The notes: generated by a model from the sequence alone, not told the origin. A DNA stretch of 40,026 bases from Chloroflexota bacterium (GCA_016213125.1 JACRBR010000354.1:1-40026); one strand, 5' to 3'. Shown: positions 15,976 to 35,535, counted from the first letter of the stretch. Numbers and translations are program-made.

Positions 15976-18768
15976 GTGGCCACACTTCGGCCTGTCGCAG
16001 GCGCCGGAACCCACGACGCATCGGCCCAACCGTACCGCGACCAGCTCGCCTTCGACCGCTGGGGGTGGGGGAGCCACTGCGTCGACTGCTATCCAAGCAA
16101 CTGCCCCTACCGCGTCTATGTGAAGGACGGCGTCATTGTCCGCGAAGAACAGTCGGGCTCATTCGACGTGGTGGAGCCGGGCGTTCCCGACATGAACCCC
16201 ATGGGCTGCCAGAAGGGCGGCTCCTGGAGCAGGCTGCTGTACGGCGGCGAGCGCATTCTCCACCCGATGCGGCGCGCCGGCGAGCGAGGAGAGGGGCGAT
16301 GGACCCGCATCTCCTGGGACGAGGCGCTCACCGAGATCTCGGAGAAGATGCTCGACACGATCCAGCACGAGGGCCCGGAGAGCATCGTGCGCGTCGGTAC
16401 GCCGGGGCAGGGGGGTGCACAGAGCATCGCCCTTGGCGGCGCGATCTTCAACAAGCTGGGCTGCACGACCACGGACGTGCAGGGCGAGATCAACGACTGG
16501 AGTCCCGGCGTCTACGCGACGTTCGGCCGGTTTGACCCCTGCGCCAGCAACGACGACTGGTTCCACTCCGACGTTCTGGTCATCTGGGGAAACAATCCCG
16601 CCTACAGCGACATCCCCCTCTACCACTACATCACCGAAACCCGATACCACGGCGCGCAGGTGGTGGTGATCGCCCCCGACTTCAGTCCTTCGGCCGTGCA
16701 CGCCGACCTGTTCGCACCGGTGCGCATCGGGTCGGACGCCGCGCTGGCGCTGGCGATGTGCCGCGTCATCATCGACGAACATCTCATGGACCGGGGGTTC
16801 GTACGCGAGCAGACGGACCTGCCCCTGCTGGTCCGGCGGGACAACGGGAGATTCCTGCGCCAGTCCGACCTCATCGAGGGCGGCCGCGACGACATATTCC
16901 ATGTGTTCGACAAGACGGACCAGCGCGTGGCGGAAGCGCCTCGCACGCTCGACCTGGGCGCGCTGGTGCCCGCGCTCCAGGGGACGTTCACGGTGACGTT
17001 GAAGGACGGCGCTCAGGTGGACGTGAGCCCCGCGTTCGTGCTCCTGGTCGAGAAGCTCCGGGAGTTTCCTCCGGAAGCCGCTGCGGGCGTGTGTGGCGTC
17101 CACGCCGACGTCATCCGGCGCCTGGCGCGCATGGTCGCTGGCGGCAAGACACACATCCTGGACGGCTGGACGTTCGGGAAGTCCTACCACGGCGATCTCA
17201 TCGAACGTGCGATGTGCCTGGTGCTGGCGCTGACCGGCAACTGGGGGAAGCAGGGCGCGGGAATCCGCAGCTGGGCGGTGGGGATGTTCGACGGGATGTT
17301 CACCTGGTCCGCAAAGGCCAAACCCGGGGTGGAGGCGGCCCGCCAGATGCAGGCCGGGCTCAACGCCATGACGGCTGGCGCGCTCGAGCAGGACCCAACG
17401 CTGACCGAGGAACTCATCGTGCACGAGATGGGGTATCGCGGCGCGGCGATGGGCGGCAACGTGCCCCCGGCATTCTTCTGGTTCAACCACTGCGGTTACC
17501 GGGAGATCTGGGACCGGCCCGGCTGGGGCGATCCGGCGATGAAGCGGACCCTGTCGGAGTACGTGAAGGAGGCCATCGACCGCGGCTGGTGGGGCGGCGC
17601 GCAGTACCCGGCGCCGGACTCCTCTCCGCGGGTGCTGTTCGAGATCGGCGGTAACCTGCTACGCCGGCAGCGCGGGGGGCAGCAGCAGTTGTTGAAGCAC
17701 CTCTGGCCGAAGCTGGAACTCGTCGTCTCGCTCGACGTACGCATGACGACGACAGGCCTGTGGTCAGACATCGTCCTGCCCGCCGCCCATCACTACGAGA
17801 AGCCGAACTTCCCCTACACGACGCCGGATGTGATGAACCTCACACTCTCCGACCGGGTGGTGGAGCCGCCCGACGACGTCAAGAGTGAATGGCAGTTCAC
17901 GCAGGCGCTGGCAAACAAGCTTTCGGAGCGCGCGGTCGCGCGCGGCTTCACGTCGTTCCAGTCGCGGCTTGGCATGCCGGTCCGGCTCGATAACCTTTAC
18001 AACGAGATCACAAAGGACGGGCACTACGCCGAGGACGACACCGTCATCAATGAGATGGTGATCGACTCCGCGGCAGCGGGAACGCTGCCGGAGGAGACGA
18101 CGCTGGAGACGCTTCGTGAGACCGGGTACGTGCGCTTCACCGCGTGGGGCCGGTCGCCCATGGCGCTCGCGCAGGCATCAGACCTCAAGCCGCATGAGAC
18201 GCATTCGCCGTTCCGCTGGCAAACCGAGAAGAAGCAGCCGTTCCCCACGCTGACGCGGCGCGCCCAGTTCTACATCGATCACGACTGGTTCCTGGAGGCC
18301 GGCGAAGAGCTGCCCACGCATAAGGAGCCACCATGGCAGGGTGGCGACTACCCGCTGGAGATCACGGGCGGGCATCCCCGCTGGAGCGCGAACTCAACGA
18401 ACATGACCAACCGGATCATCCTGAACACGCATCGAGGCAAGCCGACCGTATACGTGAACGACCGCGACGCCGTCGCGCGTGGGATCGTTGATGGCGACGA
18501 TATCCGCGTCTTCAACGACGTCTCGGAGGCCTTCGTCGAGGCGCGCGTGACTCCATCCGTCCGCCCGGGTCAGCTGATCATGTACAACGGGTTCGAGCCA
18601 TACCAGTTCGAGGGTTGGCGCGACACGGCGAACGTCGAGCCTGGGATGGTGAAGTGGCTGCACTTCGCGGGCGGATACGGCCACCTGCGCTACCGCGCCA
18701 TTCACTGGCAGCCGGTGCCCATCGACCGTGGTGTGCACGCGAACATCGAACTCGCACATTCCCGCTGA
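15976..18768 (+). CDS. Type-II DMSO-reductase-family molybdopterin oxidoreductase, catalytic alpha subunit (paralog A; no Tat signal)
   Basis: ORF track 15850..18768. GTG 15976 lies 5 nt after GAAGGAA. FS0 motif WGSHCVDCYPSNCPYRVYVKDG. Blocks EINDWSPG, REQTDLPLLVR, YHGDLIER...ALTGNWG, TLTRRAQFYIDHDWFLEAGE and GGYGHLRY. Monocistronic. Confidence 0.92.
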   Translation: MATLRPVAGAGTHDASAQPYRDQLAFDRWGWGSHCVDCYPSNCPYRVYVKDGVIVREEQSGSFDVVEPGVPDMNPMGCQKGGSWSRLLYGGERILHPMRRAGERGEGRWTRISWDEALTEISEKMLDTIQHEGPESIVRVGTPGQGGAQSIALGGAIFNKLGCTTTDVQGEINDWSPGVYATFGRFDPCASNDDWFHSDVLVIWGNNPAYSDIPLYHYITETRYHGAQVVVIAPDFSPSAVHADLFAPVRIGSDAALALAMCRVIIDEHLMDRGFVREQTDLPLLVRRDNGRFLRQSDLIEGGRDDIFHVFDKTDQRVAEAPRTLDLGALVPALQGTFTVTLKDGAQVDVSPAFVLLVEKLREFPPEAAAGVCGVHADVIRRLARMVAGGKTHILDGWTFGKSYHGDLIERAMCLVLALTGNWGKQGAGIRSWAVGMFDGMFTWSAKAKPGVEAARQMQAGLNAMTAGALEQDPTLTEELIVHEMGYRGAAMGGNVPPAFFWFNHCGYREIWDRPGWGDPAMKRTLSEYVKEAIDRGWWGGAQYPAPDSSPRVLFEIGGNLLRRQRGGQQQLLKHLWPKLELVVSLDVRMTTTGLWSDIVLPAAHHYEKPNFPYTTPDVMNLTLSDRVVEPPDDVKSEWQFTQALANKLSERAVARGFTSFQSRLGMPVRLDNLYNEITKDGHYAEDDTVINEMVIDSAAAGTLPEETTLETLRETGYVRFTAWGRSPMALAQASDLKPHETHSPFRWQTEKKQPFPTLTRRAQFYIDHDWFLEAGEELPTHKEPPWQGGDYPLEITGGHPRWSANSTNMTNRIILNTHRGKPTVYVNDRDAVARGIVDGDDIRVFNDVSEAFVEARVTPSVRPGQLIMYNGFEPYQFEGWRDTANVEPGMVKWLHFAGGYGHLRYRAIHWQPVPIDRGVHANIELAHSR

Positions 18769-18825
18769 CGAAGCGGAGCCAGCCTGCCGATTGAAGCAGC
18801 AAGTGCGACATTCGGAGACAGAGAG

Positions 18826-18849
18826 CGGGCGCCCCTCGCGAGGCGCCCG
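18826..18849. terminator. Bidirectional hairpin between convergent alpha-A and alpha-B
   Basis: 8-bp stem CGGGCGCC / GGCGCCCG with an 8-nt loop, in the 115-nt gap between the two stops. Confidence 0.5.
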
Positions 18850-18883
18850 ACCGTCTGTCGTCCGAAATGACCGTCCGTTCGTT

Positions 18884-21673
18884 TTAGGCGGTGACCTTTC
18901 GCACATCGGCCCTGGTGCCGCGGCAGGCCGGAGCAGGCTGCCACTGGTTGGGCCAGTACTTCAGGTGGCCGTAGCCGCCTGCCAGGTGGAGCCACTTGAT
19001 CATGCCCGGCTCGATGTCCGAGGGGCCGTCCCAACTCGGGAACTGGTACGGCTCCCAGCCGTTGTACATGATGATCTGCCCCGGCCTCGCCGAAGGCGAA
19101 AGCTTCAGCGGTGTGCGGTACGAGCCCATGTCGTTGAACACCTCGACCACTTCATTGTCGAAGACGTCCCGGGCTGCCGCGTCCGAGGGGTTCATGATGA
19201 GGTGCGGCTCCCCACGGTGAGTCTGCAGCATCATCTTGTTTACGATGTTCGCCGAGTGGACGCTCCAGCGGTTGTGCCCGCTGGTGATCAACAGCGGATA
19301 GTCCCCGCCGGACTTCGGCGGGTCCTTGTGGCGCGGCAGCTGCTCGTCGGCCTCAAAGAACCAGTCGTGATCGATGTAGAACTGCGCCCGCCGCGTCAGC
19401 GTCGGGTACGGGAACTTCTTCTCTACGTGGTGGCGAAGCGGCGCGAAGGTGCTGTCGGCCTCGATGTCGCTGGCCTGGCCGAGCGCCCGCGCGTTCATGC
19501 CAAGCCCGGTGAAGCGAATGAATCCCTTCTCGCGCACCGTCTCCAGACTCGATCCTTCAGGCAGCGCACCGGTAATGATCGTGTCCTTGATCATCTCGTC
19601 GGCCAGGTCGTCCTCGGTGGCGTACGCATCGTTACAGGAGTAGCGCTCGTACAGGTCGTCGAGGCGACGCTCGACGCCGGTGGCGTCCTTGTAGGTCACG
19701 AAGCCCCGGGCCTTCGCCCGCGCGGCGACGGCCTTCGAGAGCAGGCCGAATATTTCCAGCTCGTTCTTCGCCTCGTCGATGGGTGGGATCACCTTGTCGC
19801 AGAAGGTCAGGTTCAGGGTGTGCGTGCTGGGAATGCCAAAACTGATCTTCTCGTACTGCGCGGCGATGGGCAGAACGTAGTCCGAGTGCAGCGCCGTCGC
19901 GCTCATCCGGTAGTCCATCGTGGCGATCGTCGTGAGCTTTGGCCATAGGTTCGTGAGCAGCATCTTCCTGCCGCCGCGCGTCCGCCGCAGCGCGTTGCCC
20001 CCGCACTCGATGAATACGCGCGGCTCCGGGTTCTTCGCGGGGACACCGGCCCACCAGCCCTTCTCCAGCGACTCGTTGTAATAGTCGTCGAAGGGACGCG
20101 GCATCTCTGCGTCGTTCCAGTCGGCGCGGTTCCACGTCTTGTCGTAGCCGGCGTGGTTGTACCAGAGGAAGACGGGCGGCACCCACCCGGTCTTACCACC
20201 GTTGGACGAGCGCTTGGTGAACTCGATGGTGGCCATCTCCTGGGTCATCGTTGGGTCTTCGGCGCGCACACCCCCCACGAAGCCCTGGTAGCCGTTGTAC
20301 AGCATCTTCGTCATCTCGGGGCCGGCGGCTGGCTTGGCGGCGGCCATCAGCCAGCCGTCGAACAGCGCGGCGAGCCATGCTTGCACGCCGGTGCCCTTCT
20401 TGCCCCAGTTGCCGGTCAGCGCCAGCAGCAGCAACTGCGCCCGCTCGATGAGGTCGCCGTGGTAGTACTTGCCGGCGTTGTTCAGGCTGCCCAGCGTCTT
20501 GGTGCGGCCGTGGGCCACCTTGCGCGCGATCTCGCGGATCGTGGCGGGGTCGATGCCACACATCGGACCGGCCTTTTCCGCCGTGTAATCGGCGAGCCGC
20601 GGGACGACGCGATCGTACACCGGGCGCGCCGTGACGGTCGTGCCATCCTTTAGCTGCACCTTGACCGACCCGGTGAGAGCGGGATCGACGTCACCCGAGG
20701 CGAGCGTGTCGCGCGGCGCAGGAGCGATCTTCCCCGTGCGCGCGTCCAGCCAGAAGAACTGCTCGGCGTGTCCGTCCTCGCGCAGGTCGCTCTCGACGAG
20801 GAAGCGCTCATTGTCCTCGCGCACAAGGATCGGAAGGTCGGTCTGCTCCTTGACGAACGCCTCGTCCACCAGCCCCTCTTCGACGACGGTGGCAGCCATG
20901 CCAAGGGCCAGCGCGGCGTCAGTGCCCGGCTTCACCGGCAGGTAGTAGTCCGCGTGCATGGCGGAGGGCGAGTAGTCCGGCGCGACGGTTACCACGGTTG
21001 CGCCGCGGTAGCGGGCCTCGGTGATGTAATGCTGGTGAGGGATCCGCGTGTACGCCGGGTTCGAGAACCAGATGAAGAACACGTCGGCGTGGAACCAGTC
21101 GTCGATGCTGCTCACCGGGTCGAACTTCCCGTAGGTCAGGTAATGTCCGGGCGAGAAGTCGTTCATCTCGGCGTTCAGGTCGGTTGTCAGGCCGCCGATC
21201 AGGCCGTAGAAGCGGGTCCGCCCGGTGACGCCCCAGGTGCTCATATTGCAGCCCGAGAGCGCGATCATCGATTCCGGCCCTTGGTCGATGATGCCGTCGA
21301 TGATGCCGTCCGCGATCTCCTCGCAGGCCTGCTGCCAGGAGATTCGCTCCCACTTTCCGGAGCCTCGCTCGCCCACGCGCCGGGCGGGGAAGTGCAGGCG
21401 CTCGCCCCCGGAGATGGTGGAACTCCAACCGGCGCCCTTCTGGCAGCCCATGGGGTTCATGTCGGGGACACCGGCTTCGATGACCGGCATGACGCCGGCC
21501 TGCTCCTCCCAGACGATCTCACCGTCGCGCGTGTACACGCGATACGGGCAGTTGCCGGGGTAGCAGTCGATGCAGTGGCTGCCCCACACTACGCGGTCGT
21601 AGGAGAAGCGATCACGATACTTTGACTCGGTCGCCTGGCGGCCGAGGTCGGTGACTAGGGTCTGCGCAGGCAT
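18884..21673 (-). CDS. Type-II DMSO-reductase-family molybdopterin oxidoreductase, alpha subunit (paralog B; no Tat signal)
   Basis: ORF track, 929 aa. WGSHCIDCYPGNCPYRVYTRDG, EMNDFSPG, KEQTDLPILVR, YYHGDLIER...ALTGNWG, TLTRRAQFYIDHDWFFEADE and GGYGHLKY. Monocistronic. Confidence 0.92.
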   Translation of the reverse strand: MPAQTLVTDLGRQATESKYRDRFSYDRVVWGSHCIDCYPGNCPYRVYTRDGEIVWEEQAGVMPVIEAGVPDMNPMGCQKGAGWSSTISGGERLHFPARRVGERGSGKWERISWQQACEEIADGIIDGIIDQGPESMIALSGCNMSTWGVTGRTRFYGLIGGLTTDLNAEMNDFSPGHYLTYGKFDPVSSIDDWFHADVFFIWFSNPAYTRIPHQHYITEARYRGATVVTVAPDYSPSAMHADYYLPVKPGTDAALALGMAATVVEEGLVDEAFVKEQTDLPILVREDNERFLVESDLREDGHAEQFFWLDARTGKIAPAPRDTLASGDVDPALTGSVKVQLKDGTTVTARPVYDRVVPRLADYTAEKAGPMCGIDPATIREIARKVAHGRTKTLGSLNNAGKYYHGDLIERAQLLLLALTGNWGKKGTGVQAWLAALFDGWLMAAAKPAAGPEMTKMLYNGYQGFVGGVRAEDPTMTQEMATIEFTKRSSNGGKTGWVPPVFLWYNHAGYDKTWNRADWNDAEMPRPFDDYYNESLEKGWWAGVPAKNPEPRVFIECGGNALRRTRGGRKMLLTNLWPKLTTIATMDYRMSATALHSDYVLPIAAQYEKISFGIPSTHTLNLTFCDKVIPPIDEAKNELEIFGLLSKAVAARAKARGFVTYKDATGVERRLDDLYERYSCNDAYATEDDLADEMIKDTIITGALPEGSSLETVREKGFIRFTGLGMNARALGQASDIEADSTFAPLRHHVEKKFPYPTLTRRAQFYIDHDWFFEADEQLPRHKDPPKSGGDYPLLITSGHNRWSVHSANIVNKMMLQTHRGEPHLIMNPSDAAARDVFDNEVVEVFNDMGSYRTPLKLSPSARPGQIIMYNGWEPYQFPSWDGPSDIEPGMIKWLHLAGGYGHLKYWPNQWQPAPACRGTRADVRKVTA

Positions 21674-21752
21674 GGAACCTCCGTGGGGAGGCCGGTCGCC
21701 ATCATCGTCGTTTCCATCGAGCCGGCGGACAAGTGCCGGTTATCAGGTCGCC

Positions 21753-21768
21753 CGGGCCATATGGCCCG
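21753..21768. promoter_or_regulatory. 16-bp perfect palindrome in the divergent alpha-B / mobB-fmdE promoter region
   Basis: CGGGCCATATGGCCCG, read directly. It lies in the 175-nt divergent intergenic region. Confidence 0.3.
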
Positions 21769-21848
21769 CGCCATTGTGCCTGCTGGCCCGAGCCACGCGA
21801 CTATCGGCTCTACCAGCGGGCTGTACTCGGGCGGAAACTCTGATCACT

Positions 21849-22964
21849 GTGACGCAAGTGATTCGCATCATCGGGCGGTCGGGTTCCGGCAAGACGACGC
21901 TACTGTGCGAAGTGGTGCGTTTCCTTGCGGATGCCGGTCTGCGCATCGCCGTGTTCAAGCACGCGCACCATCGTGTCGATCTCGATCGGAAGGGGAAGGA
22001 CTCCTTCCGCTTCGCCGAGGCCGGCGCCGCGTTCGTGACCGTCGTCTCGCCGGAGAAGGTCGCGGCATTCGAGGCTGTCACGAGCGGCGAGCCGACGCTG
22101 GAGGAGTTGCAGGCCCGTGTGCCCGCCGGGATCGTCCTGATCCTGACAGTGGGGTTCCATGCAGGAGAACCGCCCTACTTCCTGCTGCTTGGAGCGGAGA
22201 CAGAGCCGGACGAGCGCGCGCATCACGGCGAGCTGCTGGGCGTTATCGGCCGCCGCACCGGGTCCGGGACCGCCGCGATGTTCGACAGGGCCGACGCGGC
22301 CGGTGTCGCGCGCGCCATCCTGGCGCATGTCGGCCGGCGCGCAGCAGCCACACCGGACGAGCGGCTGAACGCGCTCCTGCGAGAGGCGAAGGCATATCAC
22401 GGGCACCTGTGCCCCGGGCAGTTGCTGGGTGTGCGCCTGGCGGTCCTGGGTTGCCGCGCCGTCGGCATCGAAGAGCCTCGCACCTCCAAGAAGCTGATCG
22501 TGTGGGTGGAGACGGATCGTTGTGGTACGGACGCGGTGCAGACGGTCACCGGATGCAAGCTGGGCAAGCGCTCGCTCAAGTTCGTGGACAACGGCAAGCT
22601 GGCCGCGACCTTCCTGAATACAGAGACGGGCGAGGCGGTGCGCGTGCTGGCTCGCGCGGACTCTCGCGAAAAGGCCGCCGCCGCGTACCCGAACCTCGAG
22701 CGGCACGCGGCGCAGATGGAGGCCTACCGCCTGTTGCCGGACGAAGCGCTGTTTGCCACGGAACCTGTACAGGTGACGCTGGGTGAGTTGGATCGGCCGG
22801 GCAAGCCGCAGATTCGGGTGACCTGCACCGCCTGCGGGGAAGAGGTGAGCGACGGGCGCCACGTGCAAGGCGACGATGGCCCACTGTGCCGTTCCTGCGC
22901 CGGCGGTGCCTATTACGTGGCGCTGGGCAGCAGCGGCGATGTGAAGTCGGAGGCGCGATGGTAA
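21849..22964 (+). CDS. MobB (MGD biosynthesis adapter, P-loop) fused to an FmdE-like domain with C-terminal zinc ribbon
   Basis: In frame with ORF 21651..22964. GTG 21849 is chosen because MobB proteins begin just before the P-loop (weak RBS, so the start is uncertain). MobB part: IIGRSGSGKTTL...VFKHAHH...KGKDSFRFAEAGA. FmdE part: YHGHLCPGQLLGVRL...ETDRCGTDAVQ...CTACGEEV...CRSC. Confidence 0.8.
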   Translation: MTQVIRIIGRSGSGKTTLLCEVVRFLADAGLRIAVFKHAHHRVDLDRKGKDSFRFAEAGAAFVTVVSPEKVAAFEAVTSGEPTLEELQARVPAGIVLILTVGFHAGEPPYFLLLGAETEPDERAHHGELLGVIGRRTGSGTAAMFDRADAAGVARAILAHVGRRAAATPDERLNALLREAKAYHGHLCPGQLLGVRLAVLGCRAVGIEEPRTSKKLIVWVETDRCGTDAVQTVTGCKLGKRSLKFVDNGKLAATFLNTETGEAVRVLARADSREKAAAAYPNLERHAAQMEAYRLLPDEALFATEPVQVTLGELDRPGKPQIRVTCTACGEEVSDGRHVQGDDGPLCRSCAGGAYYVALGSSGDVKSEARW

Positions 22965-23611
22965 CCGCAGTCCGTGTCTCGGCATCAGACGACGCTCTGC
23001 TCAATCCGGAAGGAAGCGGCTGGCGTGGGATCGGCCTTGAGCGTATCGAGCTGACCCCGACGCCCATCGTCCTCCAGCCGTCGGAGTACGTCCAGAATAA
23101 GTGGGAGCCCCTGGGCCACGGCGCGACGCCGGAGGTCCGGGTGGCGGCCGCGCACAACGGGACGGCCATCTTCTTCAGGATGGAATGGGACGACCCCACC
23201 GACAACAGCCAGCCGAACGACATGGCCGATTTCCCGGACCAGGCTGGTGTCATGATGCCGGTCAAGCAGGACGCGCCGATCACGGAAATGGGCCTCCCCG
23301 ATCAGCCCGTCAACATGTGGCTGTGGCGCCCCGATATGGAAGCGCCTCTGTATGTGACCTCGACGGGACGCGGCACCTCAGTTCGCCAGCCCGATACCCC
23401 GCTCTCGGGCTCGGGCATTTGGAGCGACGGGGTCTGGCGCGTGGTGGTTTCACGGCCCTTCAACGTGTCAATGCCGGCGGGCATCGTGGTCCCGCTCGCC
23501 CCAGGTGTCAGCCACAAGTGCACCTTCGCCGTCTGGCAGGGTGCGGCCAAGGAGCGCGGCGGACTCAAAGCCTTTCAGGCAACCTGGCAGCCGCTGGAGG
23601 TAGAACGATGA
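22958..23611 (+). CDS. EB_dh-type gamma subunit (heme-b subunit of type-II DMSOR enzymes), paralog 1, no signal peptide
   Basis: ATG 22958 follows GGAGG and overlaps the upstream stop (ATGGTAA). VRVAAAHNGTAIFFRMEWDD, FPDQAGVMMPV and WQGAAKERGGLKAFQATWQPL resemble EbdC/DdhC/SerC-type subunits. Confidence 0.8.
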   Translation: MVTAVRVSASDDALLNPEGSGWRGIGLERIELTPTPIVLQPSEYVQNKWEPLGHGATPEVRVAAAHNGTAIFFRMEWDDPTDNSQPNDMADFPDQAGVMMPVKQDAPITEMGLPDQPVNMWLWRPDMEAPLYVTSTGRGTSVRQPDTPLSGSGIWSDGVWRVVVSRPFNVSMPAGIVVPLAPGVSHKCTFAVWQGAAKERGGLKAFQATWQPLEVER

Positions 23612-24261
23612 CCGTCGCACCCGCCGTTGAGATCGATGAGGCGACCGCCGCGCGGTTCGCCATGTACCACAGCCTGACCGCCGCGTTGGAGTTCCCGTCG
23701 CGGACATTCTGGGAGGACGTCGGCTGCCGCGCGTTCGCTGACGGCGTTCAGGCGCTGATCGAAGGGCTTCCCTACGAGCTGTCGCGCGATCTTCCGCTGA
23801 AGGGGCTGGCCGGGAGCGGCGACTACGTCGACTTCCAGGGAGAGTACATCCGGCTGTTCGACGTCGGCGCCGTGCGGCCACCTTGTCCGTTGTACGCGGG
23901 GGAATGGGGGACGCCCAGGCGGCAAGCGATGGAGGACGCGCTTCGCTTCTACCGCTTCTTCGGCCTGAAGATGAACGAGGACGCGCGGGAACTCCCGGAC
24001 CACGTGACGGTGCAGCTTGAGTTCATGCAGGTGATGACACACGCGGAGGGCGAGGCGCGCGCGAACAACCAGGACCCGTCGCCGCTCATTCGCGCAGAGC
24101 GCGACTTTCTTCAGCGTCACCTGGCGCGGTGGTGGCCCCTGCTCCGCAAGCGGATCCCGAGCCAGCAGCCGTCCGCCTTCTACGACGCGCTCACGGCACT
24201 GGCGGAGAACTTCCTCGTCGCCGACCACGCGTACGTCCGCCGGCTGGCCGCGTCAGCCTGA
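23608..24261 (+). CDS. NarJ/TorD/DmsD-family redox-enzyme maturation chaperone (delta subunit)
   Basis: ATG 23608 overlaps the gamma TGA (ATGA). YIRLFDVGAVRPPCPLYAGEW...ALRFYRFFGL...ELPDHVTVQLEFM is typical of this chaperone family. Confidence 0.8.
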   Translation: MTVAPAVEIDEATAARFAMYHSLTAALEFPSRTFWEDVGCRAFADGVQALIEGLPYELSRDLPLKGLAGSGDYVDFQGEYIRLFDVGAVRPPCPLYAGEWGTPRRQAMEDALRFYRFFGLKMNEDARELPDHVTVQLEFMQVMTHAEGEARANNQDPSPLIRAERDFLQRHLARWWPLLRKRIPSQQPSAFYDALTALAENFLVADHAYVRRLAASA

Positions 24262-24282: not shown

Positions 24283-24735
24283 CTACGTCGACTTTGGCGG
24301 GCGCATCGACTGCGGCACCTGCAGGAAGCTGTAGGTCTTCAGCGTAAACAGCGGCCGCGACCACTTCACGCCGACCTTGAGGCGGCGCCGGAGCATCGCC
24401 GTATAAGGATTGGCGATCCCCACGAGCGTTTCGGTCTGCAGTTTCAGTGGTCCCTTGACCGTGCCGTCGAGATCGGTATCGAAGCCGTTCTTGATCACGA
24501 GCCCATCTTCGTCGAAGACAAGCGTCACCAGAGCCTCCGGCTCAGTTGAGTGCAGGCCCAGCTTTCCGTGGATCCCCGCGGCCGCCCTGGCCTTCGCCGG
24601 ATCCTCGGCGACGATGTCCTCGATGTGCTTCTTCAGCAGCGTGGCGAGGATGTTGGCGTCTTCTTCGCCATCGGCCAGGGTGACCCCGAACTTCGGCCTG
24701 GTTGCCCCGTCGATGGTGGCGGTCTGGTTCATCAC
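24283..24735 (-). CDS. SCP2 (sterol carrier protein 2)-like lipid/hydrophobic-ligand binding domain protein
   Basis: ORF track. CAGGAG RBS, 22 nt downstream of the alpha-C stop and so co-transcribed. LVTLVFDEDGLVIKNGFDTDLDGTVKGPLKLQTETLVGIANPYTAMLRRRLKV fits the SCP2 fold pattern. Confidence 0.65.
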   Translation of the reverse strand: MMNQTATIDGATRPKFGVTLADGEEDANILATLLKKHIEDIVAEDPAKARAAAGIHGKLGLHSTEPEALVTLVFDEDGLVIKNGFDTDLDGTVKGPLKLQTETLVGIANPYTAMLRRRLKVGVKWSRPLFTLKTYSFLQVPQSMRPPKST

Positions 24736-27845: not shown

Positions 27846-30722
27846 ATGGCAACGCCGAAGACACTATCCAAACCCCGGACCAGGTCCGGGAACGGATCGA
27901 AGGCCGTGACATTGCCGCCGGTCACGCTCTCGCGCGCCGCGCAGGCCGGTCCGATCGAGGACGAATACCGCGAGAAGATCAAGTGGCAGAAGTGGACGTG
28001 GGGTAGCCACTGCGTCGACTGCTATCCCAGCAACTGCCCCTTCAGGGTCTACGTCGGAAAAGACGGCGAGGTGTGGCGCGAAGAGCAAGCCGGCACCTAC
28101 GGCGTCGTCGAGGCGGGCGTTCCGGACTTCAATCCCGCGGGTTGCCAGAAAGGTGTGTCCTGGCACCGGCTCCTGACGGGGAAGGAGCGGGTGCTGAAGC
28201 CCCTCAAGCGCGCGGGTCCCCGCGGCAGCGGCCAGTGGCAGGAGGTGTCCTGGGACCAGGCGCTGGGCGAAATCGCCGACCACGTAATCGACGCGATCCA
28301 GGACCAGGGCCCCGAATCCATCATTCGCATCGGCGAGCCCGCGGAGGGCGGCACGCAGTCGCTCATCTACGGAAGCGCCGTGGTGAACCACATCGGCGGG
28401 ACGGTGACGGACGTCCAGGCCGAGATCAACGACTTTTCACCGGGGATCTACATCACCTTCGGCAAGTTCGATCCCGCGGCCAGCTGCGACGACTGGTTCC
28501 ACACGGACCTGATGCTCTGCTGGCAGATCAATCCCGCGTACACGTCGATCCCCTGGTACCACTTCATCGCCGAAGGGCGGTACCGCGGCGCCGAGGTTGT
28601 AGTCGTCGCTCCCGACTTCAACCCTACGGCGCCGCATGCCGATTACTACGTGCCGGTCCGCATCGGCACTGACGTGGCTCTCGCAAACGCGATGAGCCAG
28701 GTGATCATCGAGGAAGATCTGGCCGACTGGAAGTTCGTGCGCGAACAGACCGACCTTCCCCTCCTCGTGCGCCTCGATAACCAGCGCTTCCTGCGGGGAA
28801 GCGACGTCGATGGCGGTCGCGACGACCAGTTCTACTGGTTCGACGAAAAGACCCAGCAGGTCGTGGAGGCGCCTCGGGGGACGCTGGCGCTCGGCAAACG
28901 GAAGCCAGCGCTGGAGGGCGTGTTCAAGGCGAAGTTGGCCAACGGGAAGACCGTCAAGGTCACCACCGCCTTCGCGATGCTGAAGGACCTGCTGAACAGG
29001 GACTACACCCCGGAGAAGGCAGAGGCCATCTGCGGCACCAGCCCCGACATCATCCGGAACATCGCGCGCAAGGCGGCGAAGAAGCGCACGCGCATGCTCA
29101 TGGGCTGGAACTCCGGCAAGTACTACCACGGCGACCTCATGGAACGCTCGATGATGCTCATCCTGGCGCTCACAGGGAACTGGGGGAAGAAGGGCACCGG
29201 GGCGCGCTCGTGGGCCGTGGGGATGTTCGACGGGCAGTTCTTCGCCCCGAACAAGCCGGCGCCGGGCCAGGAGATCACCGCGCAGGCGATGGCCGGCCGC
29301 GACGCGATGTACAAGGCGCTCCTCGCCGAAGATCCGACCATGACCGAGGAGATCATCGGCCACGAGATGTCGTACCGCGGCGCCGCGATGGGTGGCACTG
29401 TCCCGCCTGCGTTCTTCTGGTACTACCACTGCGGCTACAAGGAGATCTGGAACAAGAAGACCTGGGGTGACGTGGGCATGAAGCGCACGTTCGATCAGTA
29501 CTTCGAAGAGGCGCTGGACAAAGGCTGGTTTACAGGGACCGTGCAGCCGGCCGCCACCCAGGAACCGCGCATGATCTTCGAGGTGGGCTCCAACCTGCTG
29601 CGCCGGACGCGCGGCGGGCAGAACATGCTGCTCAAGAATCTCTGGCCAAAGCTCTCCTGCATCGTCAGCATCGATTGGCGCATGAGCACGACAGGTCTGT
29701 GGTCGGACTACGTCCTCCCGGCCGCGCATCACTATGAGAAGCCGAACTTCTGTTACTCCACCCCCCACATCATGCACCTGACCTTCTCCGACCGGGCGGT
29801 GCCGCCGCGCGGCGAGTCCAAGGAGGAGTTCGAGATCGCCGTAGAGCTCTCGCGGAAGATCGAGGAGCGCGCAAAGGCCCGGAAATTCGTCGAGTACACC
29901 GACGCGCACGGGCAGCCGCGCCGCCTGGACGACATGGTCAACCGAATGACCCTAAACGGCTACTACAAGAACTCGGACAAGGTGCTCGACGAGATGGTTC
30001 GGGACAGCGTCGTGATGGGCAACCTGCCCGAGGGCACCACGCTGGACACCATGCGCGAGGAAGGCTACGTACGATTCACGGGCTGGGGCATGTCGCCCAT
30101 GGCCATCGGGCAGGCGTCCGACATCAAGGAAGACGAAACCCATGCGCCGTTCCGGTGGCACACCGAGAAGAAGATGCCATTCCCGACACTCACGCGCCGC
30201 GCGCAGTTTTATATCGACCACGACTGGTTCCTCGAGGCGGGCGAGCAGTTCCCCGTCCACAAGGACACGCCTGCGCAGGGCGGGGACTATCCCTTCCACC
30301 TGACGAGCGGACACCCGCGCTGGTCGATCCACTCGATGAACATGACCAACAGGATCATTCTGAACACGCACCGCGGCCACCCGTTCTGTTACATCAACAC
30401 GACGGATGCCGAGCAGCGTGGCCTCAAGGATGACGAAGAGGTCGAGCTGTACAACGACATGGGTGCGATGAAGGTTGCGCTACGCGTTGCGCCTTCGGTG
30501 CGGCCGGGTCAGCTCATCATCTACAACGGCTTCGAGCCGTACCAGTTCGACGAATGGCACGACCCGGCGAACGTTGAGCCCGGCATGGTCAAGTGGCTCG
30601 CCTTCGCGGGCGGTTATGGACACCTGCGGTATCGCGGCATTCACTGGCAGCCGGTCCCCATCGACCGGGCGATCCGCCTGGATGTCCGAAAGATTGCACA
30701 CGTCGGAAAGGAGGCAGTGTGA
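27846..30722 (+). CDS. Type-II DMSO-reductase-family molybdopterin oxidoreductase, alpha subunit (paralog D; closest to A; no Tat signal)
   Basis: ORF track; AGAGGAG RBS. WGSHCVDCYPSNCPFRVYVGKDG, EINDFSPG, REQTDLPLLVR, YYHGDLMER...ALTGNWG, TLTRRAQFYIDHDWFLEAGE and GGYGHLRY. Confidence 0.92.
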   Translation: MATPKTLSKPRTRSGNGSKAVTLPPVTLSRAAQAGPIEDEYREKIKWQKWTWGSHCVDCYPSNCPFRVYVGKDGEVWREEQAGTYGVVEAGVPDFNPAGCQKGVSWHRLLTGKERVLKPLKRAGPRGSGQWQEVSWDQALGEIADHVIDAIQDQGPESIIRIGEPAEGGTQSLIYGSAVVNHIGGTVTDVQAEINDFSPGIYITFGKFDPAASCDDWFHTDLMLCWQINPAYTSIPWYHFIAEGRYRGAEVVVVAPDFNPTAPHADYYVPVRIGTDVALANAMSQVIIEEDLADWKFVREQTDLPLLVRLDNQRFLRGSDVDGGRDDQFYWFDEKTQQVVEAPRGTLALGKRKPALEGVFKAKLANGKTVKVTTAFAMLKDLLNRDYTPEKAEAICGTSPDIIRNIARKAAKKRTRMLMGWNSGKYYHGDLMERSMMLILALTGNWGKKGTGARSWAVGMFDGQFFAPNKPAPGQEITAQAMAGRDAMYKALLAEDPTMTEEIIGHEMSYRGAAMGGTVPPAFFWYYHCGYKEIWNKKTWGDVGMKRTFDQYFEEALDKGWFTGTVQPAATQEPRMIFEVGSNLLRRTRGGQNMLLKNLWPKLSCIVSIDWRMSTTGLWSDYVLPAAHHYEKPNFCYSTPHIMHLTFSDRAVPPRGESKEEFEIAVELSRKIEERAKARKFVEYTDAHGQPRRLDDMVNRMTLNGYYKNSDKVLDEMVRDSVVMGNLPEGTTLDTMREEGYVRFTGWGMSPMAIGQASDIKEDETHAPFRWHTEKKMPFPTLTRRAQFYIDHDWFLEAGEQFPVHKDTPAQGGDYPFHLTSGHPRWSIHSMNMTNRIILNTHRGHPFCYINTTDAEQRGLKDDEEVELYNDMGAMKVALRVAPSVRPGQLIIYNGFEPYQFDEWHDPANVEPGMVKWLAFAGGYGHLRYRGIHWQPVPIDRAIRLDVRKIAHVGKEAV

Positions 30723-30724
30723 GT

Positions 30725-31363
30725 ATGCGCGCGAAGAAGGTCTCCAACGCTTCCGTCCTGCTGGATCCCGCCGCTGCGGGATGGCAGAAGGTGGAACGTG
30801 ACGTTATCGACCTGGTGGGCATGCCGGTCCACGTTCAGACATCACGGTATGTCCGGACGGTATGGGCCGACAAGCTGGTCGGAAAGGTGAGAGCCGTATC
30901 CGTGCGAGCGGCCCACGACGGGGAACGAGTCGCCTTCCTGTTGGAGTGGGCGGACGATACCCAGAACACAGAGTTCGCGGAGCGCATGTTCCCGGATGCG
31001 GCAGCCGTCCTGTTTCCCGGTAATGGCGCCGCACCGATCGGCACCCTGGGCGCACCCGATGCCGCGGTCAACGAGTGGTACTGGCGTGCCGATCTGGAAA
31101 CCGGCGAGAACCTCGTCGCGCACGGCCTGGGGACGGACAAGCCCACCAACGGCGCCGCGATCGATGCGAAGGGCGCCTGGAAGGACGGGCGCTGGTCCGT
31201 CGTGCTCAGCCGCCCGCTGAAGGCGAAGGGCGCGGACAACGTCAAGCTCACGCCGGGTAAGACGGCCAGCTTCGGCGTGACGATCTGGGAAGGCAGCAAT
31301 CGCGAGCGGGGCGACCTCCGGTCGTATTCGCAGCAGTGGCACGAGCTGACGCTCGAGCAATAG
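30725..31363 (+). CDS. EB_dh-type gamma subunit, paralog 2, no signal peptide; Arg at the position aligned with the paralog-1 Lys
   Basis: ATG 30725 (alternative GTG 30719 overlapping the alpha-D stop) after AAGGAGG. VSVRAAHDGERVAFLLEWADD, FPDAAAVLFPG and WEGSNRERGDLRSYSQQWHEL align with gamma-1. Confidence 0.8.
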   Translation: MRAKKVSNASVLLDPAAAGWQKVERDVIDLVGMPVHVQTSRYVRTVWADKLVGKVRAVSVRAAHDGERVAFLLEWADDTQNTEFAERMFPDAAAVLFPGNGAAPIGTLGAPDAAVNEWYWRADLETGENLVAHGLGTDKPTNGAAIDAKGAWKDGRWSVVLSRPLKAKGADNVKLTPGKTASFGVTIWEGSNRERGDLRSYSQQWHELTLEQ

Positions 31364-31373: not shown

Positions 31374-32456
31374 ATGGCGAAGAACGGTGCAAGTGCAAGC
31401 AAGGCCGCCATCGGTCACAAGGCACCTGGCCAGGTGGCGATGGTGTTTGACCTGAACAAGTGCATCGGCTGTCAGACGTGCTCCGTCGCGTGCAAGACGC
31501 TCTGGACGCGCGACGAAGGCACCGACTACCAGTGGTGGATGACCGTCAACACCTTGCCCGGCAAGGGCGCCCCCAAGGACTGGGAGCAGATGGGCGGCGG
31601 GTACCGCGAAGGCGTCCCGCAGGAAGGCACGCTTCCCACGCGTCAGGAGTTTGGCGGGGGTTGGGACTTCAACTACGACGAGGTCTTCTACCAGGGCAAG
31701 GGCAACACGGTGCACCTGCAGCCCGTCGGCCCTAAGCCAACCTGGGGTCCCAACTGGGACGAGGATCAGGGCGCGGGCGAGTACCCGAACGCTTACTACT
31801 TCTATATGCCGCGCCTGTGCAACCACTGCACGCGCCCGTCGTGCGTCGAGGCCTGCCCCCGTGGCTCCATGTACAAACGCCCCGAGGACGGCATCGTCCT
31901 GCGGGACGAGGACAACTGCCGGGGCCTGCAGTTCTGCGCCGAGGCCTGCCCGTACAAGAAGATCTACTTCAACTACATCAAGAAGGTCAGCCAGCACTGC
32001 ATCATGTGCTTCCCTCGTCTGGAGCAGGGTGTGGCGCCCGCCTGCGCCCGGCAGTGCCCGGGGCGCCTGGTCTTCGTCGGACACCTGGACGACGTCGATC
32101 GCCCGATTCACAAGCTGGTGTACGACTACGAGGTGGCCCTGCCGTTGCACCCGGAGTATGGCACCGAGGCCAACATCTTCTACGTGCCCCCCATGAGCCC
32201 GTACCGCCTGAAGGAAGACGGCAGCCTGGACATGGAGACGCCGCGTATCCCGATGGAATACCTCGAGCGTCTGTTCGGCCCCCGCGTGCACAAGGCAATG
32301 AACACGCTGCAGGGCGAGATGAAGAAGGTCCGCGCGGGCGGAAAGTCGGAGCTACTGGACATGCTCATCGTGTACCGCTGGCACACGCTGTTCGAGCCGT
32401 TTACGAGAGACCCAGTGGAGGTGGGTGGACCGCAAGCGGTGAAGAGCGGCAGATAA
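31374..32456 (+). CDS. NarH/EbdB-like iron-sulfur beta subunit (paralog 1)
   Basis: ORF track; GGAGG RBS. Cys groups CIGCQTCSVAC, CNHCTRPSCVEACP, CRGLQFCAEACP and CIMCFPRLEQGVAPACARQCP. Confidence 0.92.
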   Translation: MAKNGASASKAAIGHKAPGQVAMVFDLNKCIGCQTCSVACKTLWTRDEGTDYQWWMTVNTLPGKGAPKDWEQMGGGYREGVPQEGTLPTRQEFGGGWDFNYDEVFYQGKGNTVHLQPVGPKPTWGPNWDEDQGAGEYPNAYYFYMPRLCNHCTRPSCVEACPRGSMYKRPEDGIVLRDEDNCRGLQFCAEACPYKKIYFNYIKKVSQHCIMCFPRLEQGVAPACARQCPGRLVFVGHLDDVDRPIHKLVYDYEVALPLHPEYGTEANIFYVPPMSPYRLKEDGSLDMETPRIPMEYLERLFGPRVHKAMNTLQGEMKKVRAGGKSELLDMLIVYRWHTLFEPFTRDPVEVGGPQAVKSGR

Positions 32457-32489
32457 CTGGCAATCACGTTTTAGTTGAGGCCGGGGTCT

Positions 32490-32591: not shown

Positions 32592-32619
32592 TTCAATAAA
32601 GAAAAGATGGGAATGGACT

Positions 32620-35535
32620 ATGAGCCGGCGTCTCAGTCGGCGGACGTTCCTCAAGGGCGCGGGCGCGACGGCAGCCGCCATCGGGCTCAGCCGTCTCGTG
32701 CCGTTACCGAACTTTGACATTATCCTCTCTACCTCCGCGCGCACGTACTCTTCCTTCGAGGACCTCTACCGTCAGAAGTGGAGCTGTGACAAGGTCACCT
32801 GGGGTACCCACCTCGTTGACTGCTATCCCGGCTCCTGCTCATGGCGCGTGTACACGAAGGACGGCGTCGTCTTCCGTGAGGAGCAGGGCGCGCAGTACCC
32901 GCAGATAGAAGAGCGCGTCCCGGACATGAACCCGCGAGGCTGCCAGAAAGGCGGTTGCTTCAGCGAGGTCATGTACGGGCCGGAACGGATCACCTACCCC
33001 CTCCGCAGAGCCAAAGGCTCGCCACGCGGCTCGGGCAAGTGGGAGCGCATCTCCTGGGACGAGGCGCTCACCGACATCGCGGATTCCCTGCTCGACGCGA
33101 TCGAGGCCCAGGGCCCGGAGTCGATCATCCATGAGTTCGGCTCTGGGGAGGGCGGTGTCGTCCATGGTTCGGTCCCCAGCTGGCGCCTCACGCGCCTCCT
33201 CGGCGGGACCGTCCTCGACAGCAACGGCCTCACGTCGGACTTCAACGTCGGAATGTATGAGACGTTCGGGAAGTTCCAGTTCGCCAGCTCGATCGATGAC
33301 TGGTACCACGCGGACTTGATCCTCCTCTGGCACATGAACCCGCTATTCACGCGGATCCCCTCCGCGCACTTCATCACCGAGGCGCGCTACAACGGTACAA
33401 AAGTCGTCTCGATCGCACCGGACTACAACGCCTCGACCATCCACGCGGACCTGTATGTTCCCGTCCAGCCGGGCACGGACGCGGCGCTGGCGCTGGGGGT
33501 CTGCAACCTGATCGTCGATCAAGGCGCCTACAACGCCGGCTTCGTTAAAGAACAGACCGACCTGCCGCTGCTGGTCCGTCAGGACACCGGGCGATACCTG
33601 CGCCGGCCGGACGTGGACGGCGAGGGCCGCGAGGATCAGCTCTACATCTGGGATGCGGCCGCCGACGCACTGACGCAGGCATCGCGCAAGACCCTGCAGC
33701 TGGACGATGTCGACCCGGCACTCGAGGGCGAGCACACGGTGCGCCTGCACGACGGCACCGAGGTCACGGTTGTGCCGGTGTTCTCGCTGCTTCGTCAGCA
33801 CCTGGCGCAGTTCACCCCGGAGCGCGTCTCCGAGCTGACGGGTGCCTCGCCGAATCAAGTGCGGCGGATGGCGGCGCTGGTCCTCGGCGCGAAGCGGATT
33901 CACATCCTCCAGGGCTTCAACACACCGAAGTACTACCACGGCGACCTGATGGAGCGTGGCATGGCCCTGATCCTGGCGCTGACTGGCAACTTCGGTCGCC
34001 AGGGCACGGGGATGCGCGGCTGGAACAGTAGCCAGCTCGTGATGGCCAACAACCTCAAGGCCAAGACGGGCTTCGAAGGGTTCATGGAGCTGGCCGAAAA
34101 CCAGCTTTCCCTGGAACACGAGTTCAAGAAGGCCGACCCGGACCTGACTGCGGAGATGCTGGCCGCGGAGGTCGAGCGCGACGAGTCGATCAACAGCGGC
34201 CTGTCCCCGTTACCAATGAGCGGAATGATGATCCCGCCCCACTTCTACTGGTACTGGCACGGCGGCTACCGCGAGGCGTGGAACAACCGCGAGTGGGCCG
34301 ACACCGGCATGAAGCGCACCTTCGACGAGTACTTCACCGAAGCGATCGACAAGGGATGGTGGGACGGGCTCGCCCAGCCGGCGCGCGATCAGACCCCCCA
34401 AGTACTGCTTGGCGCGTGCGGAAACTCGCTCCGCAGGACGCGCGGCGGCGGGAAGCTGCTGCTGGAGCATGCCTGGCCGAACTACAAGCTCATCGTGAGC
34501 ATCGACTACCGAATGAGCGCCACCGGCCGCCAGTCCGACATCTTCCTGCCCGCGGCCGCCTACTACGAAAAGACCGACTTCCGCTTCCCCACCGCCCACC
34601 TGAACTTCCTCGTCTTCACGGACAAGGCCGTCGACCCGCCCGGCGAAGCGAAGCCAGAGTGGGAGATCAACTGGCTCCTCGCCCAGAAAGTGGAAGAGCG
34701 CGCGCGGGCGCGAGGGATGGATGAGTACAGCGACCGCCGCGGCCGCCCCTACAACCTGCACGGCCTGCTGAAGCGCTTCGCCTACGACGGCCAGCTGGGG
34801 CCCGACGATGGCGAGAAGATCGCGGAGGATCTCGTCGCCGATACGGTCCGCGCGGGCGCCTTGCCCGAAAAAACGAACCTGGCCACGTTCCGCAAGAAGG
34901 GCATCGTACGGTTCACCCACGTCGGGATCGACGCGGTCGGCATGAACATGGCGACGGACATCGAGCCGAACAAGACGCTGAACCCCCTGCAGTGGCATGT
35001 GCGCGACAAGATCCCGTACCCGACGTACGCGCGGCGCATCCAGTTCTATATCGATCACGAGTGGTTCCTCGAAGCTGGCGAAGCCCTGCCGACCCACAAG
35101 CCCACGCCCAAGATGGGCGGCGACTTCCCGCTGACGATGACAAGTGGCCACCAGCGCTGGTCTATCCACTCGATGTGGGTGATCAACCGCGTCCTTTCGC
35201 GTACGCACCGCGGCCACCCCACGTTGAACATGAACCCCGAAGACATGAAGGCGCGCGGCATCGCGGATAACGACGTGGTGAAGGTGCGCAACGACTTCTC
35301 GTCGTTCGACGTACGGGTCAAGAGTTCGCCTTCCAGCCGGCCGGGGCAAGTCGTGATCTACCACGCCTGGGAGCCGTTCCAGTTCCCCGGCGGGAAGTCG
35401 TACGACGTGGCGATCCCCGGCCTCATCAAGTGGCTGCACCTGGCCGGCGGATACGGACATCTTCGCTATTACCGCTGGAACTGGGTGCCGCAGCAGGTAG
35501 ACCGGGGCGTGTCCGTAGAAGTGGAGAAGGCGTGA
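32620..35535 (+). CDS. Type-II DMSO-reductase-family molybdopterin oxidoreductase, alpha subunit (paralog E; Tat signal)
   Basis: ORF track. Twin-arginine leader MSRRLSRRTFLKGAGATAAAIGL. WGTHLVDCYPGSCSWRVYTKDG, LTSDFNVG, KEQTDLPLLVR, YYHGDLMER...ALTGNFG, ARRIQFYIDHEWFLEAGE and GGYGHLRY. Confidence 0.92.
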   Translation: MSRRLSRRTFLKGAGATAAAIGLSRLVPLPNFDIILSTSARTYSSFEDLYRQKWSCDKVTWGTHLVDCYPGSCSWRVYTKDGVVFREEQGAQYPQIEERVPDMNPRGCQKGGCFSEVMYGPERITYPLRRAKGSPRGSGKWERISWDEALTDIADSLLDAIEAQGPESIIHEFGSGEGGVVHGSVPSWRLTRLLGGTVLDSNGLTSDFNVGMYETFGKFQFASSIDDWYHADLILLWHMNPLFTRIPSAHFITEARYNGTKVVSIAPDYNASTIHADLYVPVQPGTDAALALGVCNLIVDQGAYNAGFVKEQTDLPLLVRQDTGRYLRRPDVDGEGREDQLYIWDAAADALTQASRKTLQLDDVDPALEGEHTVRLHDGTEVTVVPVFSLLRQHLAQFTPERVSELTGASPNQVRRMAALVLGAKRIHILQGFNTPKYYHGDLMERGMALILALTGNFGRQGTGMRGWNSSQLVMANNLKAKTGFEGFMELAENQLSLEHEFKKADPDLTAEMLAAEVERDESINSGLSPLPMSGMMIPPHFYWYWHGGYREAWNNREWADTGMKRTFDEYFTEAIDKGWWDGLAQPARDQTPQVLLGACGNSLRRTRGGGKLLLEHAWPNYKLIVSIDYRMSATGRQSDIFLPAAAYYEKTDFRFPTAHLNFLVFTDKAVDPPGEAKPEWEINWLLAQKVEERARARGMDEYSDRRGRPYNLHGLLKRFAYDGQLGPDDGEKIAEDLVADTVRAGALPEKTNLATFRKKGIVRFTHVGIDAVGMNMATDIEPNKTLNPLQWHVRDKIPYPTYARRIQFYIDHEWFLEAGEALPTHKPTPKMGGDFPLTMTSGHQRWSIHSMWVINRVLSRTHRGHPTLNMNPEDMKARGIADNDVVKVRNDFSSFDVRVKSSPSSRPGQVVIYHAWEPFQFPGGKSYDVAIPGLIKWLHLAGGYGHLRYYRWNWVPQQVDRGVSVEVEKA

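Follow-up and report, generated by a model that had tools for sequence, protein, structure and literature searches.

The window is a stretch of 40,026 nucleotides from a Chloroflexota bacterium (GCA_016213125.1, JACRBR010000354.1:1-40026). A gene cluster at 15.9-39.9 kb is, to judge from its profile and structure matches, a molybdenum enzyme set resembling ethylbenzene dehydrogenase (EBDH) and the steroid dehydrogenase S25DH. It encodes five alpha, two beta and two gamma subunits and one delta chaperone (Table 1). The G+C content of the window is 63-68%, and its nearest relatives are metagenome-assembled genomes (MAGs) of Chloroflexota/Dehalococcoidia. GCA_040960215.1 (locus L001) has full synteny with the cluster. 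Only one alpha subunit, alpha-E, carries a twin-arginine translocation (Tat) leader. Our sequence comparisons show alpha-A to alpha-D as likely descendants of Tat-exported ancestors that have lost the leader, and the beta and gamma subunits as proteins without a predicted signal. The alpha-A to alpha-D enzymes, with their partner subunits, therefore most likely act inside the cell.

Family identity of the subunits

All five alpha subunits have EbdA of EBDH (PDB 2IVF) as their best match among solved structures, with 35-43% identity and E values from 1e-164 to 1e-242 (4.8e-242 for alpha-D). This PDB comparison covered the five alphas, both gammas and beta-1. EbdC (2IVF chain C) was the top match of both gammas, and beta-1 aligned with residues 15-348 of EbdB (E 5e-128). 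The best NCBIfam models were those for the alpha, beta, gamma and chaperone subunits of the type II DMSO reductase family (TIGR03479, TIGR03478, TIGR03477 and TIGR03482, respectively). Beta-1 (484.2 bits) and beta-2 (494.5 bits) passed the TIGR03478 cut-off of 480.7, and delta scored 148.5 bits with TIGR03482, whose cut-off is 152.3. None of the alphas reached the TIGR03479 cut-off of 984.75 (alpha-A 870, alpha-B 865, alpha-C 903, alpha-D 882 and alpha-E 981.6 bits). The profile aligned with alpha-E over positions 1-913 and with alpha-A to alpha-D only from positions 37-48 onward (48 for alpha-A). Their scores fall below the cut-off mainly because profile positions 1 to about 36-47, the leader region, are missing, and the Tat-less alphas are therefore automatically annotated merely as 'molybdopterin-dependent oxidoreductase'. 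The EBDH equivalogs (NF042978, NF042979, NF042980) were not reached by the alphas (601-852 of 2000 bits), the betas (422-440 of 740) or the gammas (94-111 of 400).

When the five window alphas are aligned with seven homologues, about 125 columns are invariant in the 12 sequences, among them the Cys residues at alpha-D positions 59, 64 and 100. A His/Cys motif for the FS0 cluster is common to EBDH and the window alphas; it reads HCVDC...NC in alpha-A and alpha-D, HCIDC...NC in alpha-B and HLVDC...SC in alpha-E. The corresponding motif of alpha-C is CNQADCIAAC. This alpha-C motif, GTCNQADCIAAC (about 27400-27440, minus strand), has the form C-x3-D-C-x3-C and resembles the 3Cys/1Asp FS0 of Kuenenia NXR, unlike the His-type motif of EBDH and the other four alphas. 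A conserved Asp of alpha-D aligns with EbdA Asp223, which we take to be the Mo ligand. For the other four alphas the D-containing motifs EINDW, EMNDF, SVGDL and LTSDF were read by eye, unaligned to EbdA. EbdA His192, presumably an active-site residue, is aligned with Pro in alpha-D.

Export signals in the window and in related loci

The alpha-E N-terminus, MSRRLSRRTFLKGAGATAAAIGL, contains SRRTFLK followed by GAGATAAAIGL. It scored 25.0 bits against Pfam PF10518 TAT_signal (cut-off 22.7), and the alignment of alpha-E with EbdA begins at EbdA residue 20 and thus takes in the leader. Alpha-E matches EbdA even in this respect, whereas alpha-A to alpha-D have no such leader. A motif and hydrophobicity scan found RRxFL followed by a hydrophobic region in none of alpha-A, alpha-B, alpha-C and alpha-D. 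The preliminary description of this DNA had assigned a Tat leader to alpha-E alone, quoting N-termini of the other four alphas without RRxFLK and a hydrophobic region. All N-termini quoted there occur in the translations as given. Both statements hold for the window, the first by the Pfam match and the EbdA alignment, the second by upstream stops, start contexts and stop-to-stop scans.

Alpha-B has an in-frame stop 22 codons upstream and its sole start is ATG 21673, preceded by GGAGG. Alpha-D has an in-frame stop 12 codons upstream and its sole start is ATG 27846, with a Shine-Dalgarno site. Because of these stops and single starts, a leader is physically impossible in both proteins. An in-frame stop also lies 8 codons upstream of beta-1, and beta-2 has a short N-terminus. 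The longest extension of alpha-A (from 15850, 126 nt) contains 'RRLFHAL', which runs directly into 'RTRRKEG' with no hydrophobic region; its start GTG 15976 is preceded by GAAAGAAGGAA, and orthologues have the same start. Extension of alpha-C to 27754 (213 nt) gained no motif, and its ATG 27541, preceded by GGAGGA, agrees with the starts of the orthologues P0209 and P0210. Thus the upstream extensions of alpha-A and alpha-C add no leader, as had been claimed. Gamma-1 starts at ATG 22958, which is preceded by GGAGG and overlaps the stop of the preceding gene, and gamma-2 at ATG 30725, preceded by AAGGAGG and 2 nt past the alpha-D stop. Both match the EB_dh, EbdC and TIGR03477 models from model position 1-2 onward, in agreement with the earlier view that they start directly at the mature-like domain.

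The missing leaders might be an annotation artefact, the true starts lying upstream, or the genes might be decaying pseudogenes. The long in-frame extensions of alpha-A and alpha-C (126 and 213 nt), the former with its 'RRLF', could be taken that way. Against this, alpha-B, alpha-D, beta-1 and beta-2 have in-frame stops that preclude a leader. Neither the alpha-A nor the alpha-C extension has a hydrophobic region or is conserved in orthologues, and Shine-Dalgarno sequences stand ahead of the proposed starts. The alpha open reading frames are intact (920-960 aa), keep the invariant columns described above and are 57-90% identical over MAGs of several phyla. We regard an artefact or gene decay as scarcely credible. 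A start-codon error in particular was rejected on the stop codons, the Shine-Dalgarno sites and the orthologue starts.

The same state was found among relatives. The best-matching 120 homologues of alpha-D, with 57-90% identity, comprise 116 N-terminally complete sequences and 4 fragments, and a Tat leader is present in 0 of the 116. Some of them, such as P0013 and P0056, have just 5-6 residues ahead of the conserved W-E-D-R-Y-R core. A scan of one genome per species gave at least 582 loci, and 81 related loci were analysed. The best 80 of these at least 582 all belong to uncultured Dehalococcoidia, Anaerolineaceae, 'delta proteobacteria'/Myxococcota, Binatia, Acidimicrobiia, Solirubrobacterales and others, frequently with several copies per MAG. 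Alpha open reading frames were read from stop to stop, so that the choice of start has no bearing on the outcome. In about 90 alpha open reading frames of the A to D types from the 81 loci, no leader was found in any upstream in-frame extension. RRxFL with a hydrophobic region occurred only in alpha-E-type orthologues (signature THL[VI]DCYPGSC), all of which are Tat-positive. The 28 gammas and 45 betas of the 81 loci contained no export signal. The absence of the leader is a lineage trait and not a start-codon artefact.

The leader appears to have been lost, rather than never gained. Alpha-C homologues with at least 59% identity (49 clusters, Chloroflexota) are Tat-less. Relatives at 50-55% identity (about 69 clusters; Binatia, Deltaproteobacteria, Nitrospirae) have textbook leaders, for example MELSRRTFLRGAGAAAATLTLANL. 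In 8 alpha-C orthologues of the analysed loci, and in most representatives with at least 73% identity, 'LRRL' or 'KRL' is followed by polar residues with no hydrophobic region. In the window the alpha-C N-terminus lies at 27430-27541, and the loci with an LRRL/KRL remnant are L001, L004, L005, L006, L038, L044 and L050. On this pattern of N-termini, alpha-C is a putative case of leader decay caught in progress. The N-termini of alpha-A, alpha-B and alpha-D are basic tails only, with no conserved RR. Among 50%-identity representatives of the wider family, most full-length alpha-D relatives are Tat-positive and a minority Tat-less; such representatives collapse the Tat-less A/B/D clade to few and do not give its size. 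In a crude neighbour-joining tree without support values, the A/B/D clade adjoins the Tat-positive alpha-E types, EbdA falls outside these and the alpha-C types are deeper. P0334, an alpha-D relative of 1152 aa (41% identical), has a NarJ-like domain (Pfam Nitrate_red_del, a clear match) fused at the alpha N-terminus and is therefore incompatible with an N-terminal export signal. P0351 (1130 aa), also an alpha-D relative, has the same NarJ/TorD-type N-terminal fusion with a weak match. In both proteins the delta-alpha fusion stands in the leader's place. From these comparisons the Tat loss looks secondary and seems to have happened at least twice.

Gamma subunits and accessory genes

The preliminary description had also stated that in characterised enzymes of this type alpha-beta is exported by Tat and the haem-b gamma by Sec. 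The literature supports the first part. The second part does not stand for EBDH itself, since the deposited EbdC (2ivf_C, 214 aa) begins MKAKRVPGGKELLLD and has no signal peptide; 2ivf_A is the full precursor including the leader, so the 2IVF entry holds precursor sequences. EbdC residue 1 was aligned with the initiator Met of gamma-2 (ATG 30725; N-terminus MRAKKVSNASVLLD). The gamma-2 query was the translation of window 30722-31363, one codon upstream, and EbdC residue 1 accordingly fell at query residue 2. The NCBIfam EbdC equivalog and type II gamma models likewise start at gamma-2 residue 1. Tat or Sec leaders appeared in the gamma search only in distant EB_dh proteins of 280-320 aa. Because EbdC itself has no signal, signal-less gammas are normal for EBDH, in which gamma is co-exported with alpha, and are uninformative on localisation. 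Localisation therefore hinges on alpha alone. The signal-less gammas were rejected as evidence for a cytoplasmic enzyme for the same reason.

In EBDH and in Kuenenia NXR, Met and Lys are the axial ligands of haem b (PMC8387239). Gamma-1, which aligned with EbdC residues 3-211, keeps M and K at EbdC positions 108 and 201. In gamma-2, Leu and Arg occupy the Met108 and Lys201 positions in alignments with both EbdC and NxrC. An L/R or F/R pair is found in 40 of the closest gamma-2 cluster representatives (P0121-P0160); remoter relatives have M/K or M/H, with a Met/His clade intermediate. No compensating conserved His, Met or Cys was found in the gamma-2 clade. The L/R gammas are those located 3' of alpha-D-type genes, and the order alpha-D, gamma-2, beta-1, with alpha-D first, is that of the window operon. 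These substitutions suggest that gamma-2 is probably a haem-free gamma subunit. With its ligands lost, the alpha-D/gamma-2/beta-1 enzyme is probably without haem and its electrons would leave via beta. The earlier designation of both gammas as haem-b proteins is thus doubtful for gamma-2.

Alpha-E heads a separate operon (32620-39071, plus strand) with the carbon-nitrogen hydrolase, a polytopic membrane protein and beta-2, in which starts and stops overlap or abut. The operon type is kept at L001 14752-21107 and L002 14054-19568. It has its own beta in the window and in L001; the operon contains no gamma. The membrane protein matched no Pfam family; its homologues have 440 aa in L001 and 481 aa in L002. 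Alpha-E with beta-2 would be the sole conventional Tat-exported member of the set.

Table 1. Coordinates of the genes in the cluster
Feature	Position	Strand	Basis
alpha-A, EBDH-like molybdopterin subunit, no Tat leader	15976..18768	+	Pfam Molybdopterin and Molydop_binding; TIGR03479
alpha-B, EBDH-like molybdopterin subunit, no Tat leader	18884..21673	-	Pfam; TIGR03479
MobB-FmdE fusion with DksA/TraR zinc finger	21651..22964	+	Pfam MobB, FmdE, zf-dskA_traR
gamma-1, EB_dh subunit, no signal peptide, Met/Lys kept	22958..23611	+	Pfam EB_dh
delta, NarJ/EbdD-type assembly chaperone	23608..24261	+	Pfam Nitrate_red_del
SCP2-like small protein	24283..24735	-	sub-threshold Pfam SCP2
alpha-C, divergent EBDH-like molybdopterin subunit, no Tat leader	24758..27541	-	Pfam, PDB, TIGR03479
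alpha-D, EBDH-like molybdopterin subunit, no Tat leader	27846..30722	+	best PDB match EbdA
gamma-2, EB_dh subunit, no signal peptide, haem ligands replaced	30725..31363	+	Pfam; EbdC alignment
beta-1, four-cluster Fe-S subunit, no signal	31374..32456	+	TIGR03478; EbdB match
alpha-E, EBDH-like molybdopterin subunit, canonical Tat leader at about 32620-32700	32620..35535	+	Pfam TAT_signal
carbon-nitrogen hydrolase, translationally coupled to alpha-E	35535..36596	+	Pfam CN_hydrolase
polytopic membrane protein of the alpha-E operon	36593..37927	+	no Pfam match
beta-2, four-cluster Fe-S subunit, no signal, ends the alpha-E operon	37920..39071	+	TIGR03478
MobA-like molybdenum cofactor guanylyltransferase	39128..39895	-	Pfam NTP_transf_3

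Two genes of the cluster may serve cofactor supply. The MobA-like gene is kept in L001 and L002. The MobB-FmdE protein is a putative accessory for Mo-bisPGD supply or insertion, as its domains suggest. Translation probably begins some 200 nt downstream of where the open reading frame opens; the orthologue in L001 has 364 aa, and in the window the stop of the fusion gene overlaps the gamma-1 start (ATGGTAA). FmdE-like genes are also found beside such clusters in L001 and L002. The SCP2-like protein (150 aa) scored 20.7 bits against Pfam SCP2, just under the cut-off of 21.3, and its gene lies between delta and alpha-C, in the same place as in L001. From this match it is a possible carrier of a hydrophobic ligand.

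Window positions 3428-11838 encode several cupredoxin (plastocyanin/azurin-type) proteins, one of them with two domains and 512 aa. A histidine kinase and LuxR-type regulator pair is found in the same interval, as are WxL and WxL-interacting surface proteins, with domains typical of Gram-positive cell walls. The blue-copper proteins might serve the exported alpha-E enzyme as electron carriers on the outer face, which is pure speculation.

Cellular location and electron transfer

EBDH, S25DH, S26DH and CmdA are all described as Tat-exported, periplasmic enzymes. When no subunit has a signal, it is most economical to assume a cytoplasmic enzyme with a redox partner that is non-periplasmic. We estimate a probability of roughly three in four that alpha-A to alpha-D belong to EBDH/S25DH-like alpha-beta-gamma enzymes of the cytoplasm, with several alphas making joint use of fewer beta, gamma and delta subunits. 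The preliminary description had called such a location atypical. This remains true with respect to the absent alpha leader, which sets these proteins apart from all characterised EBDH-type enzymes; its argument from the gammas is void, EbdC being signal-less as well.

A working scheme can be proposed. In it, alpha is the subunit with Mo-bisPGD and FS0, beta has the four Fe-S clusters, gamma is of the EB_dh type and delta is the NarJ-type chaperone. Delta may bind alpha at its basic N-terminal tail, which in alpha-C is the LRRL remnant, and hold alpha open for insertion of FS0 and of the cofactor, which would be supplied by MobA and MobB-FmdE. The holoenzymes of alpha-A to alpha-D would then assemble and stay in the cytoplasm in the manner of NarGH. 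Two betas, two gammas and one delta would serve all five alphas, in the manner of Sterolibacterium S25DH. Hydrophobic substrates would most likely undergo a water-dependent hydroxylation, or a related oxo-transfer, at a Mo centre ligated by Asp. Electrons may pass from FS0 through FS1-FS4 to haem b in gamma-1, or leave directly from beta in alpha-D/gamma-2/beta-1, the final acceptor being a cytoplasmic or inner-face carrier.

Cytoplasmic NarG has a remnant Tat peptide that is bound by the NarJ chaperone (PMC10609526). NarGHJI, a cytoplasmic system of the type II DMSO reductase family, is a direct precedent for the alpha-C LRRL remnant and for the keeping of delta: an RR remnant without hydrophobic region and a NarJ-family chaperone, the two NarG-type features, are found in alpha-C and delta. 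Nar has much lower similarity to the window alphas (156-258 bits over part of the protein) and a membrane di-haem NarI in place of the EB_dh gamma.

The Tat-less alpha-beta-gamma enzymes could still be exported by hitchhiking on a separately encoded Tat-bearing subunit or escort, as in PaoABC and further Tat substrates of several subunits. Hitchhiking is usual in the family, where beta and the EbdC-type gamma ride on alpha; the genome uses Tat, as the alpha-E leader indicates; and three-component Tat hitchhiking has reportedly been observed. The analysed loci speak otherwise, for no Tat-bearing open reading frame is conserved beside the Tat-less alphas in the 81 loci, and at many loci a self-contained alpha-gamma-beta(-delta) operon encodes only subunits that lack a signal. 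In every known case of the family the signal is on alpha, and the delta-alpha fusions of relatives favour cytoplasmic retention. We consider such an escort improbable.

Another explanation, drawn by analogy with NarGH, is that these proteins are cytoplasmic reductases of oxyanions or N-/S-oxides (nitrate, chlorate, selenate) serving assimilation or detoxification with a low-potential cytoplasmic donor. The type II DMSO reductase family is rich in reductases, NarGH with its remnant Tat peptide is the one well-studied cytoplasmic member, PcrAB was the second-best PDB match, and the haem-less gamma-2 would suit electron input via beta, as in PcrAB. All alphas, betas and gammas nevertheless score highest against EBDH subunits, above Nar, Pcr and Nxr. 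The Asn position that binds substrate in NXR and Nar is Ile in EbdA (PMC8387239). By motif reading it is Asp in alpha-A, alpha-B, alpha-D and alpha-E (HC[VI]DC, HLVDC) and Ala in alpha-C. The five alpha paralogues of a cluster, with up to several in one MAG, are reminiscent of the S25DH set, which is diversified by substrate, and the acyl-CoA dehydrogenase, thiolase-like and SCP2-like neighbours also argue against a reductase. The reductase explanation is unlikely, although it deserves more weight than an escort.

Several points weigh against a cytoplasmic enzyme group. The leader calls were made with a simple motif (RRxFL) and hydrophobicity test, and the tree is the neighbour-joining one described above. 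In neighbour clustering over the 81 loci, the recurrent families were alpha, beta, gamma, delta, MobA and MobB/FmdE only; no conserved redox partner or Tat-bearing escort emerged, and no cytoplasmic acceptor. The scattered neighbours in these loci are an acyl-CoA dehydrogenase, a CrtI-like FAD enzyme, a thiolase-like protein, a radical SAM protein, an amidohydrolase and a TetR protein. The idea of hydrophobic substrates, drawn from the sub-threshold SCP2 match and the scattered beta-oxidation-type neighbours, is weak. The Met/Lys haem of EBDH has a high potential, which suits a periplasmic cytochrome c and would be awkward for a cytoplasmic gamma-1. The cytoplasm is still the most likely location of the alpha-A to alpha-D enzymes, as far as sequence evidence goes.

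A broader proposal is more tentative, and we would sooner doubt than assert it. A very large, uncharacterised radiation of EBDH-like enzymes may have moved from periplasm to cytoplasm at least twice, its alpha-D/gamma-2/beta-1 branch with a haem-free gamma, and may consist of O2-independent hydroxylases passing electrons from beta to a cytoplasmic acceptor. In that case this enzyme class would be wired into metabolism in a new manner. The lineages with these EBDH-like enzymes are Chloroflexota/Dehalococcoidia, Myxococcota and 'delta proteobacteria', Binatia, Acidimicrobiia and other uncultured lineages.

EbdABC(D) of Aromatoleum aromaticum (PDB 2IVF) has the same subunit set of alpha, beta, gamma and NarJ-type delta and an equally signal-less EbdC; the window operon differs in its alpha-gamma-beta order and in a gamma-2 without Met/Lys. 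In Sterolibacterium denitrificans, eight S25DH alphas share fewer beta-gamma pairs (PMC6016249). S25DH1-4/S26DH of this organism, likened here by description, resemble the window in their many alpha paralogues with fewer beta-gamma pairs and a chaperone (PMC6016249, PMC6153880). Some automatic annotations label homologues 'steroid C-25 hydroxylase', and the SCP2-like gene hints at hydrophobic substrates, as for the steroid dehydrogenases. Unlike alpha-A to alpha-D, S25DH and S26DH have Tat leaders, a periplasmic location and a cytochrome c acceptor (PMC7411048). AhyABC of Desulfococcus oleovorans Hxd3, an EBDH orthologue and metagenomic marker, is a putative hydroxylase acting on the C2-methylene group of alkanes (PMC7803848, PMC13515206). 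It is biochemically uncharacterised, its anaerobic hydroxylation of non-aromatic hydrocarbons is a proposal, and it too is likened by description. No paper that we found describes EBDH-like enzymes that are Tat-less or cytoplasmic, although an earlier mention in reviews is possible.

The biochemistry of EBDH-type hydroxylases, from the anaerobic activation of ethylbenzene, p-cymene and sterol side chains to the proposed activation of alkanes, assumes a periplasmic enzyme re-oxidised by cytochrome c. If the most populous environmental branch is cytoplasmic, it must differ in electron acceptor, in energetics and in how substrates reach it, and care would be needed where 'EbdA/AhyA/S25DH-like' genes in metagenomes are called periplasmic activators of hydrocarbons. 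An EB_dh subunit would, with a haem-free gamma, be shown capable of a non-redox role. Alpha-D, gamma-2, beta-1 and delta form a compact set for heterologous expression in which export is unneeded.

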